A DNA stretch of 27,446 bases from Clostridia bacterium (lineage in GTDB: Bacteria; Bacillota; Clostridia; Oscillospirales; CAG-272): NCBI GenBank assembly GCA_017625275.1, contig JAGALI010000241.1, positions 1-27,446 on the forward strand, read 5' to 3'. A model generated the notes under the pieces. It had not been told where the DNA came from and searched no databases. It saw only the letters and a list, made by a program, of their open reading frames with translations. Each line of letters begins with the position of its first letter. The stretch's first letter is position 1. A program made the translations under genes and the position numbers. This document shows positions 19,260 to 21,500 of this stretch, one piece after another.

Positions 19260-20876
19260 TTATTTCGCTAGCGCCCTTTGGGCGAGCCTTCTTATCCTTT
19301 TAAGAGCTTTTATGCTATGAGGATAATCGGTAAATGTCCTTTTAAAGCCGTTTTCAAGAAGAAGCGCCTCGGCACCCTCTCTTCCTATTTTCTCCTCTAA
19401 GCGCTTAAAGAGCATATAGTCCTGTATTGCATCATAAAAGTTTTCGTGGCGAATGGAATCAAGCGCGCCGTCCTTGCCTGGATAAACAGAAAACGCATCT
19501 CCGCTTTGCAGTCCTCCTCCACAATCTGTAATCAAATATGGGTCAACAGCCTCATCGGAAAGAACTGAGTTGTAGAAATTATAGCCCCAGTGCAAAAAGC
19601 CCTTAATATCGTTTAGGTACATTTGCATGCCAAGCACCCTTATTCTCTCTCCAGACATCGACATGTATCTGTTAGATAGGTAGGAGTGTGTCTCTGCACA
19701 GCAATAATAAGCCCACAAATTTGGGGTTTTATTATCAAGAAAGGCTTGAATATGCGCTGTTGAGGAAATGGCACCATCAACAAGCCCCTGCTTGTAAAAC
19801 TCGTAGTGGCTAAGTGCGTCCATTACTGGAGCATCTGGTGCATATTTTTTGAAAATTCTTCTTGCGCTTTTATAGTCCTCAAGACACTGCTCATTTGGCT
19901 CATCGGAGATATGGAAGCGACAATCCTGATATAGCCCTTCCTTCTTCAGTGTGGCAACAAGCTGAGGTAAAAATGCGCCCAAAAACGCCTCGTATTCCTC
20001 TCCTACTGCACGACTCTCCCAGCCAAAAATGCGCCTTACTCTTCCGTTCACCTTGGCCACTATTTTCGGTGCAAATTTCGCACCCCATTGGGTAAATAGA
20101 TGGCTCATTTCAAAGTACTTAATGCCAAGCTCCCTTACCTTTTTCATAAAGGAAATTAAGCGTGCAAAATCAAATTCATATCCAGCCTCTGTCTTGGTAA
20201 CATCGACAAGCTGTACAGTCAGCCTTTCCTTTCCCATTCTTGTGTCAAGTGGTGGGGTGAACATAGGCACTAAAAGCATATTCATTCCATGTCTTACGGC
20301 ACAGCTTATAAAATTGTACATTATTTTGTTGTATTTGGGTGAGAACACCTTCAAATTATAATACTGGGCAAGACCATCATAATGAAACCAGTTTGTATAT
20401 ACAAGAGTGCTTTCTCCTAGATAAAAATCGAGGACCGTAACCTTATATTCTGCTTTTCCGATAACATATCCATTTTGCTCAAGCGAAATTTCTATTGGGT
20501 ATTCACCTGGGGTTAAATCGCCCTTTATGGTAAACCATATACTATTGTATGAGCCTAATCTTGCCGTTGGCTTACGCTTCTCGCAGGAGCACAAAACATC
20601 TGGGCATAAAAATGGCTTTTTGGTTAAATAATAGTCATCCGTTGCGCCTAGAACAGGAGTTGTGCAGGGAACATATTCAACCTGTCTGTAGGTTATGTAC
20701 TTTTTTATCGGACTTTTTATCTTTACCTCTATTTCCTTTTGAAGCCACTCTATTTTATACGCAACCTGAAAGGACAAGGTCTCATCCCTTGCCATTGTGT
20801 TCTCCCTTTCAACCATTTTAGGTCTTTTGTCTATAAGCACCCTTTCCTCAGCGCATATTGTATAAATTTCGTTCAT
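19260..20876 (-). CDS. DUF4091-domain glycoside hydrolase (GH123-like, putative beta-N-acetylgalactosaminidase/hexosaminidase)
   Basis: HISDEP (D325-E326 pair), WAYYCC, GFLHWGYNFY, GDAFSVYPG..SIRHE..DAIQDY (DUF4091 C-terminus); no signal peptide; RBS AGGAGG. Confidence 0.75.
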   Translation of the reverse strand: MNEIYTICAEERVLIDKRPKMVERENTMARDETLSFQVAYKIEWLQKEIEVKIKSPIKKYITYRQVEYVPCTTPVLGATDDYYLTKKPFLCPDVLCSCEKRKPTARLGSYNSIWFTIKGDLTPGEYPIEISLEQNGYVIGKAEYKVTVLDFYLGESTLVYTNWFHYDGLAQYYNLKVFSPKYNKIMYNFISCAVRHGMNMLLVPMFTPPLDTRMGKERLTVQLVDVTKTEAGYEFDFARLISFMKKVRELGIKYFEMSHLFTQWGAKFAPKIVAKVNGRVRRIFGWESRAVGEEYEAFLGAFLPQLVATLKKEGLYQDCRFHISDEPNEQCLEDYKSARRIFKKYAPDAPVMDALSHYEFYKQGLVDGAISSTAHIQAFLDNKTPNLWAYYCCAETHSYLSNRYMSMSGERIRVLGMQMYLNDIKGFLHWGYNFYNSVLSDEAVDPYLITDCGGGLQSGDAFSVYPGKDGALDSIRHENFYDAIQDYMLFKRLEEKIGREGAEALLLENGFKRTFTDYPHSIKALKRIRRLAQRALAK

Positions 20877-20913
20877 TTGTTTTCCTCCTAGATATATCTA
20901 GCTCTCTAAAAAG

Positions 20914-20942
20914 ATTATATAAAAAATTCCCACTAAAATCAA
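20914..20942 (-). promoter_or_regulatory. Promoter of the DUF4091 gene
   Basis: Minus strand TTGATT-17 bp-TATAAT. Confidence 0.7.
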
Positions 20943-20952
20943 GTAGTAAAAG

Positions 20953-20977
20953 AAAAAAACACCCACGCTTGTGAGTG
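20953..20977 (-). terminator. Distal terminator closing the tRNA/repeat region
   Basis: Minus strand CACTCAC-AAGC-GTGGGTG-TTTTTTT (one G.U pair). Confidence 0.7.
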
Positions 20978-21091
20978 ATTGCTTTATTCTTTGTTTTGCT
21001 AGATTCTCGCCTTTGGCGATGATTGACGCTTTGCTTAAATCGAACCAGATTCTTGTCGAAGACAAGAAGGCTGTCCGAAGACGCTTCCTCG

Positions 21092-21130
21092 CACAAAAAA
21101 AGGACACCGAATTGGTGTCCTTTTTTTGTG
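21092..21130. terminator. Terminator-like hairpin of repeat unit 2
   Basis: CACAAAAAAAGGACACC-GAATT-GGTGTCCTTTTTTTGTG, perfect 17-bp stem, T-runs on both strands. Confidence 0.8.
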
Positions 21131-21230
21131 GTGGGGGAAGCTGGATGATCGCCTTTGGCGATGATTGACGCTTCACTTAAATCGAACCAGAGTCTTGCGA
21201 GCAAGACCTGGTACGAAGACGTTTCCCTAT

Positions 21231-21275
21231 CATAACAGAAAAGCGAGTACACTTGGTGCTCGCTTTTCTGTTATG
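21231..21275. terminator. Terminator-like hairpin directly after tRNA-Tyr (repeat unit 1)
   Basis: CATAACAGAAAAGCGAG-(11 nt)-CTCGCTTTTCTGTTATG, perfect 17-bp stem. Confidence 0.8.
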
Positions 21276-21358
21276 GTGGGGGAAGCTGGATTCGGACCAG
21301 CGAAGTCAGTGACAACAGATTTACAGTCTGCCCCCTTTGGCCGCTCGGGAATTCCCCC
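21274..21358 (-). tRNA. tRNA-Tyr (GUA), CCA encoded
   Basis: GGGGGAATTCCCGAGCGGCCAAAGGGGGCAGACTGTAAATCTG...CGAATCCAGCTTCCCCCACCA; long variable arm; anticodon at 21322-21324. Confidence 0.97.
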
Positions 21359-21374
21359 ATATAAATCGCGAGAT

Positions 21375-21449
21375 TGGAGCTGGTGATCGGAGTCGAACCA
21401 ACAACCTGCTGATTACAAATCAGCTGCTCTGCCATTGAGCCACACCAGC
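21375..21449 (-). tRNA. tRNA-Thr (UGU), CCA encoded
   Basis: GCTGGTGTGGCTCAATGGCAGAGCAGCTGATTTGTAATCAGCAGGTTGTTGGTTCGACTCCGATCACCAGCTCCA. Confidence 0.97.
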
Positions 21450-21471: not shown

Positions 21472-21500
21472 ATTTTAACATATATTTTTTTACTTGTCAA
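21472..21500 (-). promoter_or_regulatory. Promoter of the tRNA-Thr/tRNA-Tyr operon
   Basis: Minus strand TTGACA-17 bp-TAAAAT with extended -10 TG. Confidence 0.85.

Follow-up and report, generated by a model that had tools for sequence, protein, structure and literature searches.

The window analysed here, a 27,446-nt stretch of Clostridial DNA, carries a tRNA-Thr/tRNA-Tyr operon that is followed by a repeat region (Table 1). Reading in the direction of the tRNA, tRNA-Tyr is succeeded by a 17-bp hairpin, a first repeat unit (unit 1), a second 17-bp hairpin, a second unit (unit 2) and a terminator. Unit 1 starts 44 nt past tRNA-Tyr and ends in an exact copy of the last 18 nt of this tRNA, and unit 2 ends in a degenerate copy, in which the acceptor part is lost and only a T-arm 3' half, GAATCTAGC, is left (21006-20998, an 8/9 match). 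The 18-mer, ATCCAGCTTCCCCCACCA, occurs exactly twice, and the 127 nt between the two occurrences contain no open reading frame of any size and no integrase. The cores of the two units, 58 nt in length, are 90% identical and spaced at 142 nt. A tandem repeat built on the tRNA-Tyr 3' end had been described in a first-pass annotation of this DNA, and all of its parts (the 18-mer twice, the two hairpins, the cores, the degenerate copy and the terminator) were found again. The same holds for the claim that both hairpins begin on the CA of the CCA with equal stem length, as each has perfect 17-nt arms.

Table 1. Features of the tRNA-Tyr repeat region and its borders, listed in the direction of the tRNA genes; all coordinates of the repeat region are valid on the minus strand.
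Feature	Position	Strand	Details
Promoter-like site of the tRNA-Thr/tRNA-Tyr operon	21472..21500	-	TTGACA-17-TAAAAT with TG; consensus match only
tRNA-Thr(TGT)	21375..21449	-	ARAGORN and Rfam
tRNA-Tyr(GTA)	21274..21358	-	CCA encoded; T loop TCCGAAT; ARAGORN and Rfam
Site copy 1	21291-21274	-	last 18 nt of tRNA-Tyr
Hairpin 1	21231..21275	-	perfect 17-bp stem from the CA of the CCA; 17-nt arms 21275-21259 and 21247-21231
Unit 1, 5' part	21213..21230	-	ATAGGGAAAC (inverted, degenerate copy of the acceptor 3' strand of the tRNA), then GTCTTCG
Unit 1, hairpin C	21186..21212	-	ACCAGGTCTTG-CTCG-CAAGACTCTGGT; helix with compensatory changes across the family
Unit 1, CTGGTTCG	21183..21190	-	direct copy of the T-arm 5' half; ends at the split point TTCG^
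Unit 1, S-type module	21147..21182	-	3' remnant of a ~70-nt L module
Second 18-mer copy	21129..21146	-	exact (18/18); tRNA-Tyr positions 59-76 including CCA
Hairpin 2	21092..21130	-	perfect 17-bp stem, GGACACC core, A run/U run; arms 21130-21114 and 21108-21092
Unit 2 (S type)	20998..21091	-	GAGGAAGC, GTCTTCGGAC, hairpin C, CTGGTTCG, truncated module, GAATCTAGC
Final intrinsic terminator	20951..20977	-	7-bp stem (20977-20960) and T7
Promoter-like site of the downstream GH123 gene (ORF 20876-19260)	20914..20942	-	outer limit of the element, not part of it

As the U tract that forms the tail of hairpin 1, TTTTCTGTT, is weak, this hairpin probably serves as a leaky first terminator. Hairpin 2 looks like a canonical intrinsic terminator, and it is a member of a hairpin family present at many sites in these genomes. 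The 3' arm of each hairpin is prolonged by sequence that repeats the acceptor 3' strand of the tRNA in inverted orientation; at hairpin 1, positions 21222-21250 pair with 21256-21284 (29 nt, 86%). Comparison with relatives identifies the GTCTTCG in the 5' part of unit 1 as an inverted remnant of the T loop. Hairpin C, which has a TTCG loop in unit 2, comes next, and the T-arm 5' half stands directly ahead of each core, so that the core sits within a split T loop. In the minimum-energy fold of unit 1, GGG is closed with CCC and the ACCA is single-stranded.

What appears as a core in the window is all that is left, on the 3' side, of a larger module which relatives have in full. Both units are of the S type, which equals the L type minus about 32 nt, and the module of unit 1 retains hairpin F only (ATCGCC-AAA-GGCGAT, 21162-21148). 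Without these ~32 nt the long helix cannot form in either unit. Since both have lost the 5' strand of helix E together with its apical hairpin, the two copies in the window are probably relics, whatever the module does.

The first-pass annotation had also raised the prospect of a one-off local duplication, to which an artefact of assembly may be added, given that the whole array is spanned by no single public contig. Unit 2 and hairpin 2 are covered by overlapping pieces on public contigs from X1 and X2, as are the second 18-mer and a part of unit 1, and one X2 contig shows a form that skips 138 nt, approximately one unit. The presence of homologous arrays in dozens of independently assembled genomes makes a one-off event or an artefact extremely improbable.

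A family of folded units behind tRNA genes

A BLASTN search with the S-type core, as proposed in the first-pass annotation, gave no other copy in the window's own genome. There the family was revealed by a covariance model only (R1, built from relatives), which gave 10 matches on six contigs. When R1 was searched in 50 genomes of the genus (uncultured gut Clostridia), ~380 units were found in 48 of them, at 2-19 per genome. Most units stand in arrays of 1-4 that begin 40-54 nt past tRNA-Tyr, Gln, Arg, Glu, Met or Ser; in three near-complete genomes, 27 of the 35 units belong to arrays starting 40-54 nt after a same-strand tRNA. As homologous arrays trail tRNA-Tyr in most genomes of the genus, the repeats in the window are not due to chance. 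The family was found behind at least nine kinds of tRNA gene, and the earlier frame, a peculiarity of tRNA-Tyr, is too narrow: the two repeats past tRNA-Tyr are eroded versions of a small, folded, non-coding element found behind many tRNA genes.

An intact unit opens with an inverted copy of the T arm, acceptor and CCA, which extends the terminator hairpin of the tRNA, and continues with the variable hairpin C. Next, the T arm is repeated in direct orientation, and the ~70-nt module interrupts this copy precisely behind TTCG; the module has two helices, F and E, the latter with a CUUG loop at its tip. What remains of the T arm comes after the module, in some units together with the acceptor strand and CCA, and usually a further terminator-type hairpin closes the unit. 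Of the tRNA 3' end, most intact units retain 8-13 nt; typically the module is succeeded by about 8 nt of tRNA identity, the 3' strand of the T stem, and then by a different conserved spacer. The flanks track the local tRNA: units have CTGG/CCAGC where tRNA-Tyr has GCTGG/CCAGC, GTGG/CCACC where it has GGTGG/CCACC, and ATGG/CCATC behind tRNA-Gln. Intact units are accompanied by many truncated and orphan copies.

The fold of the module is well defined by the alignment, in which 91.3% of cells are paired compared to 68.8% in shuffles. Compensatory changes were observed in 29 of the 31 base pairs, and the covariation score was 0.524, against at most 0.096 when the partners were slid. In addition, the folds of the units are significantly stable (z -2.2 to -4.1). 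Given this strong covariation, the fold is under some selection, unlike a purely passive repeat.

Outside the genus the family is patchy. None of seven sister genera had a unit match, and among other genomes of the order 3 of 150 did, in three different families; one of these three matches lies 42 nt behind tRNA-Gln. A scan for exact patterns that covered 185,579 species gave matches limited to gut MAGs of uncultured Clostridia, Eubacteriales and Oscillospiraceae, plus a single match in Bacteroidota that is inside a reading frame and was taken as chance. BLASTN of an intact unit against phage and plasmid collections gave no match. The pattern scan of viral contigs gave one, on a prophage-like contig identical to a MAG locus, where the unit adjoins a tRNA 3' fragment. 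Literature searches returned nothing on such tRNA-linked units in Clostridia.

Several other candidates were considered and dropped. Searches of the window and six intact-unit loci against Rfam 15, at gathering and permissive thresholds, returned the tRNAs and chance hairpin matches only, and no RtT, tmRNA, T-box or ribozyme. A T-box-like sensor of tRNA is further at odds with the downstream genes, which vary. The inverted copy spans the whole T loop, contrary to a retroviral-type primer-binding site or a reverse-transcriptase stop at m1A58, and the R-box consensus of an integron attC-like site was absent. Protein coding was dropped because the open reading frames across the units (e.g. 20848-21252) are broken by indels between unit types.

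Split point, strand and spread

Some units are located upstream of antisense tRNA-Ser(TGA/CGA) genes, where they are inserted in CGCTTCG^ATATTCCT. At these loci it is the tRNA-Ser 5' ends, read in reverse complement, that hold the module, again at TTCG^A, a finding that speaks for spread by way of DNA. In every case TTCG (or TGCG) precedes the module, and the target sequence around it exists in three copies. At the tRNA-Ser loci the only evident promoter, recognized by eye, is TTGACA-17-TATTAT, and the units are antisense to it, so that transcription there would not produce the strand that folds.

This orientation is difficult to reconcile with the idea that the units are host-beneficial sRNA genes, either tRNA-like (cf. 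RrA/B/F) or regulatory sponges, whose copy number reflects dosage and arises by ordinary duplication, with no mobility at the DNA level. The covariation and the stable folds described above would suit such genes, as would the conserved U-G pair and the UUCG/CUUG loops on the tRNA strand, and a position between two terminators like that of the E. coli rrn sRNAs derived from tRNA-linked repeats (TLRs) (PMC8144298). However, the sister genera are without a match and three distant families have one, truncated and orphan copies are numerous, and helix E is absent from both copies in the window. Moreover, apart from the one conserved U-G pair on the tRNA strand, G-U pairs are about as frequent as A-C (56 vs 47); so weak a strand asymmetry is not what a classic RNA gene would show, nor does it amount to a clear signal of single-strand DNA. 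We consider it rather unlikely that the units are genes of this type.

Single-stranded DNA is the substrate in another explanation, in which the module is a derivative, itself non-autonomous, of a HUH transposon of the IS200/IS605 PATE or REP/RAYT kind and inserts 3' of TTCG in single-stranded hairpin loops. The fixed insertion point after a tetranucleotide would be expected from such an element, and so would a definition by structure over sequence, with hairpins at the ends, and a conserved wobble or mismatch. Like REP/BIME, MITE-like repeats and the PATEs of IS200/IS605, the units are short, hairpin-rich, multi-copy and lineage-specific, occur just past gene ends in mosaics or tandem arrays, and conserve structure over sequence. 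In contrast to these, their flanks copy the neighbouring tRNA end, and no cognate RAYT or TnpA tracks the family. The Y1 (IS200-like) transposase domain, PF01797, was detected in only 23 of the 50 genomes of the genus and on no contig of the window's genome; the 27 genomes that have units but lack the domain include near-complete ones. A model search of bona fide IS200-like loci found no units at their ends. Units do lie within 4 kb at 3 of the 7 Y1+HTH gene loci, a proximity that is only suggestive, as tRNA trailers are general insertion hot spots. IS200/IS605-type transposons make no target duplications, whereas the target is present three times here. Taken as a whole, a HUH origin of the module appears doubtful, and we assign it a small probability.

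We favour a course of events in which the units spread as DNA, multiplying and changing place. The family comprises numerous copies in tandem, with a patchy distribution and a variable copy number, and its module always sits at TTCG^A. As likely routes, the units of an array could cross over unequally, and hairpin-forming copies of tRNA ends could take up the module at TTCG^A, by insertion or by template switching. A tRNA 3' end that has been duplicated could serve as a 3' processing site of the tRNA type, and in the window processing might release a unit 1 RNA of ~100-145 nt that ends at or near the CCA. Read-through past the first hairpin may be low, since this hairpin is a strong terminator in many relatives. 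In two metatranscriptome runs that share sequence words with the window, only the tRNAs were covered; coverage of the flanking genes was zero and the organism was not evidently present.

Comparison with known systems

Duplicated tRNA 3' ends are familiar from the attachment sites of islands and prophages, and in the T-loop class, attributed to Williams (2002), the direct repeat reportedly starts in the T loop and runs to the CCA. The two copies of the 18-mer likewise form flanking direct repeats from the T loop to the CCA. The first-pass annotation had suggested, as one of two alternatives, a non-autonomous miniature element that accumulates at a tRNA att site through an integrase acting in trans. 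In a fuller form of this reading, the units are miniature integrative elements or their scars, and a tRNA-targeting tyrosine integrase (e.g. from a prophage) recombines the 18-nt block and leaves one unit per integration. The tRNA-proximal copy is perfect and the distal one decayed, as this would predict. The reading is also in line with the role of tRNA trailers as insertion hot spots of the genus, and with the prophage-like contig and a 1.2-kb insert that separate tRNA remnants from units. Unlike att-site elements, however, the repeats here enclose no integrase and no cargo, and a circle excised from them would be only ~145 bp. The module interrupts the copy of the T arm instead of lying beside an intact core site. 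The part of the proposal that describes a multi-copy, patchy and copy-number-variable element holds, but its integrase/att part is unsupported: past the module, most intact units match the tRNA over just ~8 nt before the different conserved spacer begins, tRNA-Ser 5' ends carry the same module in their reverse complement, and no co-occurring integrase or other recombinase partner was identified, short of a genome-wide association. Integrase-mediated accumulation of the units is thus quite unlikely, and a duplicated tRNA 3' end is not always the scar of an island.

The units share acceptor-like and T-arm-like segments, and in unit 1 also the terminal CCA, with tRNA and tmRNA genes. They differ from these by the lack of a D arm and an anticodon arm, and by a T loop that holds a module of 36-75 nt. 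When ARAGORN and the Rfam tRNA/tmRNA models were run on the region, the two true tRNAs were called and the units were not recognized.

In E. coli, tRNA-linked repeats have been known since 1978, most of them without an established origin or function; K-12 carries 22 TLRs, distributed over ten loci, a unit closes with 18-19 nt that match the 3' end of its upstream tRNA exactly, and some TLRs, flanked by a terminator on either side, arise by read-through (PMC8144298). The 178-bp tyrT/tyrV repeats (rtT RNA, rttR, RF00391) are tandem units of the same orientation directly behind the tRNA, as observed here. TLRs as a kind stand directly past a tRNA or rRNA gene, on its strand, and this position is shared by unit 1 of the window and by most units of the family. 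Unit 1 also shares the identity to the tRNA 3' end from the T loop onward (18/18), and unit 2 has only its 9-nt remnant. At tyrV/rttR we find an inverted 22-nt copy of the tRNA T-arm/acceptor (86% complementary), followed by AAGGTTCGA, the T-arm 5' half, a ~66-nt structured insert and, at the end, AATCCTTCCCCCACCACCA, the final 19 nt of the tRNA. The Clostridial units have the same parts in the same order (inverted copy, T-arm 5' half, structured insert), and an inverted copy with a split T arm, as read in tyrV, is present both in the window and in relatives.

No sequence similarity was found between tyrV/rttR and the Clostridial units, and the Rfam RtT model (RF00391) gave no match with E up to 10 on the window and up to 0.1 on six intact-unit loci. 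The idea of a Clostridial analogue of tyrT/rtT, which had been voiced at the start, is thus upheld for layout, parts and order, and not for similarity to the RtT sequence or model. Unlike in the TLRs of E. coli, the terminator hairpin here continues straight into the inverted copy, the insert is another, two-helix module with lineage-wide covariation, and a mirror form occurs in tRNA-Ser leaders. The Clostridial family reaches 19 model matches per genome, compared to the 22 TLRs of K-12 (PMC8144298).

Because tyrV/rttR shares the layout, though without sequence similarity, the tRNA-linked repeats of E. coli are, by analogy, the closest known kind. The balance of the evidence tips towards the view that this region of the window holds two degraded representatives of a tRNA-linked repeat family specific to the lineage and of the same kind as E. 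coli TLR/rtT. For the annotation of these MAGs, the family accounts for recurrent contig breaks and for 'orphan tRNA 3' fragments' beside tRNA genes. The genus also represents a much larger natural data set of the TLR design, with hundreds of units behind many kinds of tRNA, a module fold fixed by covariation, intact and decayed copies together, the tRNA-Ser mirror form and the sharp TTCG^A split, so that origin and RNA relevance become testable by comparative genomics and end mapping. More tentatively, and as a possibility that we rate well short of probable, TLR-type units from E. coli to gut Clostridia might be products of one undescribed process. Structure-defined modules would enter TTCG^A in hairpin loops of DNA copies of tRNA ends and generate inverted and direct copies of that end, as self-propagating mini-elements in the safe zone beside tRNA genes. 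If true, this would explain the roughly 45-year-old puzzle of rtT and the TLRs.

Organization of the tRNA-Tyr array

The first-pass annotation had described a tandem repeat of tRNA 3' ends, hairpins and conserved cores behind the tRNA-Tyr gene, and reading of the window together with a repeat finder shows this account to be accurate. The last 18 nt of unit 1 (21146-21129) are those of tRNA-Tyr, as seen by direct reading and with the repeat finder, which also confirmed hairpin 2. Three features had escaped notice: an inverted copy of the acceptor, a split T loop, and the nature of the core as a remnant of a larger module. The 3' arm of hairpin 1 continues as GATAGGGAAA, which is an inverted and degenerate copy of the 3' acceptor strand (29 nt, 86%; repeat finder). 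Before each core stands CTGGTTCG, the T-arm 5' half of tRNA-Tyr, and after it (A)ATCCAGC, the 3' half; the core therefore lies inside a split T loop. The U tract of hairpin 1 is weak; unit 1 is flanked by two hairpins and has a tRNA-type 3' end.

Features of the tRNA-Tyr array in the window, in the direction of transcription of the tRNA genes
Feature	Position	Strand	Basis
Promoter-like site, upstream of tRNA-Thr and tRNA-Tyr	21500-21472	minus	
tRNA-Thr	21449-21375	minus	
tRNA-Tyr	21358-21274	minus	
Hairpin 1, perfect 17-nt arms	21275-21259 and 21247-21231	minus	direct reading and repeat finder
Unit 1	21230-21129	minus	direct reading and repeat finder
Hairpin 2, perfect 17-nt arms, GGACACC core, A-run/T-run	21130-21114 and 21108-21092	minus	
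Unit 2, 3' end GAATCTAGC	21091-20998	minus	direct reading and repeat finder
Terminator and T run	20977-20960	minus	
GH123 gene promoter and start, after the terminator		minus	

The T loop of tRNA-Tyr itself (21291-21297) reads UCCGAAU, with a C at position 55 in every genome of the genus inspected; a tRNA-Gln in locus L035 was also listed for this loop. Position 55 is a U (pseudouridine) nearly universally. The units behind these tRNA-Tyr genes retain the canonical GGTTCG. The terminator hairpin AAAAAGGACACC-N4-GGTGTCCTTTTT (21092-21130 in the window; positions 73-112 of contig C32 of the same genome) is itself repetitive: it follows many genes and tRNAs throughout the genus and occurs in dozens of places per genome.

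A family of folded units behind tRNA genes

The first-pass annotation had looked to BLASTN for further copies of the core in this genome and in related Clostridia. The relatives bore this out, with related tRNA-Tyr trailers in many of the genus genomes, whereas the window's own genome (a 1.41-Mb MAG in 242 contigs) gave no second BLASTN match to the core. The trailers of the relatives contain longer units, termed L type, with an intact module of approximately 70 nt (helix E and hairpin F); eight of them yielded a consensus fold with compensated changes in 18 of 31 pairs. A covariance model built from these units, R1, gave about 380 matches in 48 of the 50 genus genomes (2-19 per genome, often in tandem). 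In the window's genome R1 gives ten hits on six contigs: beyond the tRNA-Tyr array, units occur behind tRNA-Arg(ACG), Glu(CTC), Arg(CCT) and Met(CAT), and in an array at the end of contig C167. Visual reading of all 26 tRNA trailers in this genome added variant units behind tRNA-Glu(TTC) and tRNA-Ser(TGA), and with both approaches seven of about nineteen operon ends carry units. Of 35 units in three near-complete genomes, 27 belong to arrays that begin 40-54 nt past a same-strand tRNA. The unit family is thus not peculiar to tRNA-Tyr.

At an intact unit the CCA of the tRNA is followed by a terminator-type hairpin, the 3' arm of which extends into a reverse complement of the tRNA 3' end in the order TGG, acceptor, and a T-arm-like hairpin around TTCGRA. 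Hairpin C, free in sequence but conserved in pairing, comes next, then a direct repeat of the 5' T-arm strand with TTCG, and then the module. Helix E consists of three stacked segments with the tip N1N2-CTTG-N2'N1', in which N1 and N2 covary; hairpin F has a short loop, commonly a triloop closing a 6-bp stem. The module is followed by A(A/T)TCC and then the 3' strand of the T stem, which in some units continues into the acceptor strand plus CCA. The sequence of the T stem varies with the adjacent tRNA: units have CTGG/CCAGC where tRNA-Tyr has GCTGG/CCAGC, GTGG/CCACC where it has GGTGG/CCACC, ATGG/CCATC behind tRNA-Gln(TTG) and TGGG/CCTAG behind tRNA-Gln(CTG). Over 62 units, 91.3% of cells are paired (68.8% in shuffles), compensatory changes occur in 29 of 31 pairs, and the covariation score is 0.524, compared to at most 0.096 with slid partners. 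The fold is therefore strongly supported, and the intact module is constrained in structure.

In some units a further hairpin of ~45 nt (GGGGTTCCCCAA-ACGAAG-ATGAG-TTTGGGGGTTC-like) is nested in the CUUG loop of helix E, at the identical point in units behind different tRNAs (L026:1692-1876; L043:1665-1852; L050:1663-1848; contig C119 of the window's genome, 5587-5769; L068, equal to L131:4441-4614); it represents a subfamily of the module or else one element inside another. The variant unit behind tRNA-Ser(TGA) (contig C86, 2921-3008 for the tRNA) has an inverted T-arm copy, GGGTGGGATTCGAAGGGG, followed by an AT-rich insert of ~130 nt unrelated to the L module and then by 19 nt that repeat the tRNA 3' end exactly, together with a copy of the tRNA's terminator.

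Alignment of the two window units with S- and L-type units from three related genomes shows that the S type lacks ~32 nt of the L type, namely the 5' strand of helix E and the apical hairpin, and retains remnants of the helix E 3' strand together with hairpin F; helix E cannot form in S-type units. These were found only behind tRNA-Tyr, and only in the window's genome and three others (G010, G023 and G032). The tRNA-end copy proximal to the tRNA is perfect and the distal one decayed in the window, and the same gradient is present in the G010 and G032 arrays. The window units are thus two decayed members of a large lineage-specific family resembling tRNA-linked repeats (TLRs). In public DNA runs contigs break within the repeats, and one contig, from run X2, joins 21084 to 21223, skipping 138 nt with several differences nearby; this represents a related strain whose array is shorter by about one unit.

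Other repeats also follow tRNA genes. A second family, unrelated to the units, forms arrays of short hairpins directly behind tRNA terminators, with TATATCATC / GTATGTAATC as spacers over the first half of the array and their complement, GATGATATAC / GATTCCATAC, over the other half, giving a large composite palindrome (L037:280-520; L049:130-330 and 860-1060; L015 and L016, downstream of tRNA-Tyr; and C167 (L056), distal to the units there). In L037 this family is accompanied by two small ORFs, inserted between tRNA-Tyr and its unit. A different tandem repeat of ~150 nt (TTGCCTGCAGGGGCTCCCCTG...ACAAAACAGGATTTTTTGTTTTGTGCGACATTGTCGAG...) follows the terminator of tRNA-Thr(GGT) (2727-2802) on contig C187 in at least 2.5 copies.

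RNA genes or propagation at the DNA level

The distribution searches were samples, and absences mean that matches were not found in the genomes searched. R1 matched none of seven sister genera of the same family and two of 150 other genomes of the order; R2, a broader model of 59 units from many tRNA contexts, matched three of 150, from three different families. One of these matches again lies 42 nt behind tRNA-Gln and ends in the tRNA-Gln 3' end. An exact 19-base module pattern scanned over 185,579 species hit 52 stretches, 51 of them in MAGs of uncultured Clostridia, Eubacteriales or Oscillospiraceae bacteria, many from goat, deer and sheep guts; the single Bacteroidota match lies inside a reading frame and was taken as chance. 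Together, these results show a family that is abundant in one genus and sporadic elsewhere, as expected of an element that is mobile or turns over rapidly, and not of an old RNA gene.

A same-strand tRNA precedes 29 of 57 pattern matches by less than 900 nt; another nine sit too near a contig or locus edge to judge, and the other 19 have no same-strand tRNA within that distance. Several of these 19 are orphan arrays, with only a 10-12-nt tRNA 3' fragment before the hairpin; one adjoins a prophage-like contig. L124, a 37.6-kb IMG/VR contig identical to L090 and predicted to be viral or prophage, terminates next to a tRNA 3' fragment with a unit behind it, which suggests a prophage integrated between the tRNA and its trailing units. 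Another six of the 19 adjoin an intact tRNA-Ser gene, with anticodon TGA or CGA, that is encoded on the opposite strand. In this mirror form the module splits CGCTTCG^ATATTCCT, the reverse complement of the tRNA-Ser 5' acceptor/D-arm, and module and gene are separated by an inverted copy of this segment and a palindromic hairpin. Visual inspection places a strong promoter (TTGACA-17-TATTAT) on the tRNA-Ser strand, reading through the unit into the tRNA, so that the transcribed strand is the complement of the one with the conserved U-G pair.

An ordinary RNA gene would agree with the UUCG and CUUG loops and a single conserved U-G pair (50 of 58 units), which lie on the tRNA strand, and with the stable folds, and has a precedent in E. 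coli. However, outside the conserved pair G-U (56) is hardly commoner than A-C (47), many copies are truncated, the distribution is patchy, and the tRNA-Ser mirror form argues for spread at the DNA level. What trailer and mirror forms share is thus not a tRNA 3' trailer RNA but a module placed at TTCG^A within a third copy of the tRNA-gene-end sequence, beside an inverted second copy. This placement rule points to DNA-level propagation as a proposed mechanism. Read-through from the tRNA operon would transcribe the units, and such putative transcription is likely a consequence of propagation as DNA. In two public RNA runs coverage was confined to the tRNAs, and the organism's flanking genes had zero coverage there.

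A Y1 transposase was considered as partner and rejected, as it occurs in 23 of 50 genomes and is absent from that of the window; no units were found at IS200-like ends. A protein of 250-286 aa with an IS200-like Y1 domain and a C-terminal helix-turn-helix is encoded in seven of 50 genomes, at three of seven loci within 4 kb of units or tRNA-Arg genes (L131:2634-3386; L135:2934-3467; L132:5203-5535), and this proximity might offer a faint lead to a partner.

Comparison with the tRNA-linked repeats of E. coli

The first-pass annotation had also considered an analog of the E. coli rtT arrangement, and the E. coli K-12 tyrV/rttR locus shows this to be right in layout. Its 178-bp repeat begins with a spacer and GGGGAAGGATGAGAAGCTTCGA, 86% complementary to TCGAAGGTTCGAATCCTTCCCC of the E. 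coli tRNA, and continues with CCAAGGTTCGA, a GC-rich hairpin insert of ~66 nt and AATCCTTCCCCCACCACCA, the CCA of which is the annotated rttR 3' end. The Clostridial units share this design, with the T loop split at the same point to within one base, but they have no sequence similarity to it and no match to Rfam RtT. A 2021 paper counts 22 TLRs at ten loci in E. coli; in each, 18-19 bp match the 3' terminus of the preceding tRNA or rRNA exactly. None had a known function, and the phenotype first ascribed to the tyrT TLR is reported to have proved due to an open reading frame close by (PMC8144298). Three E. coli units behind rrn operons sit between two terminators (PMC8144298), much as unit 1 of the window lies between two hairpins.
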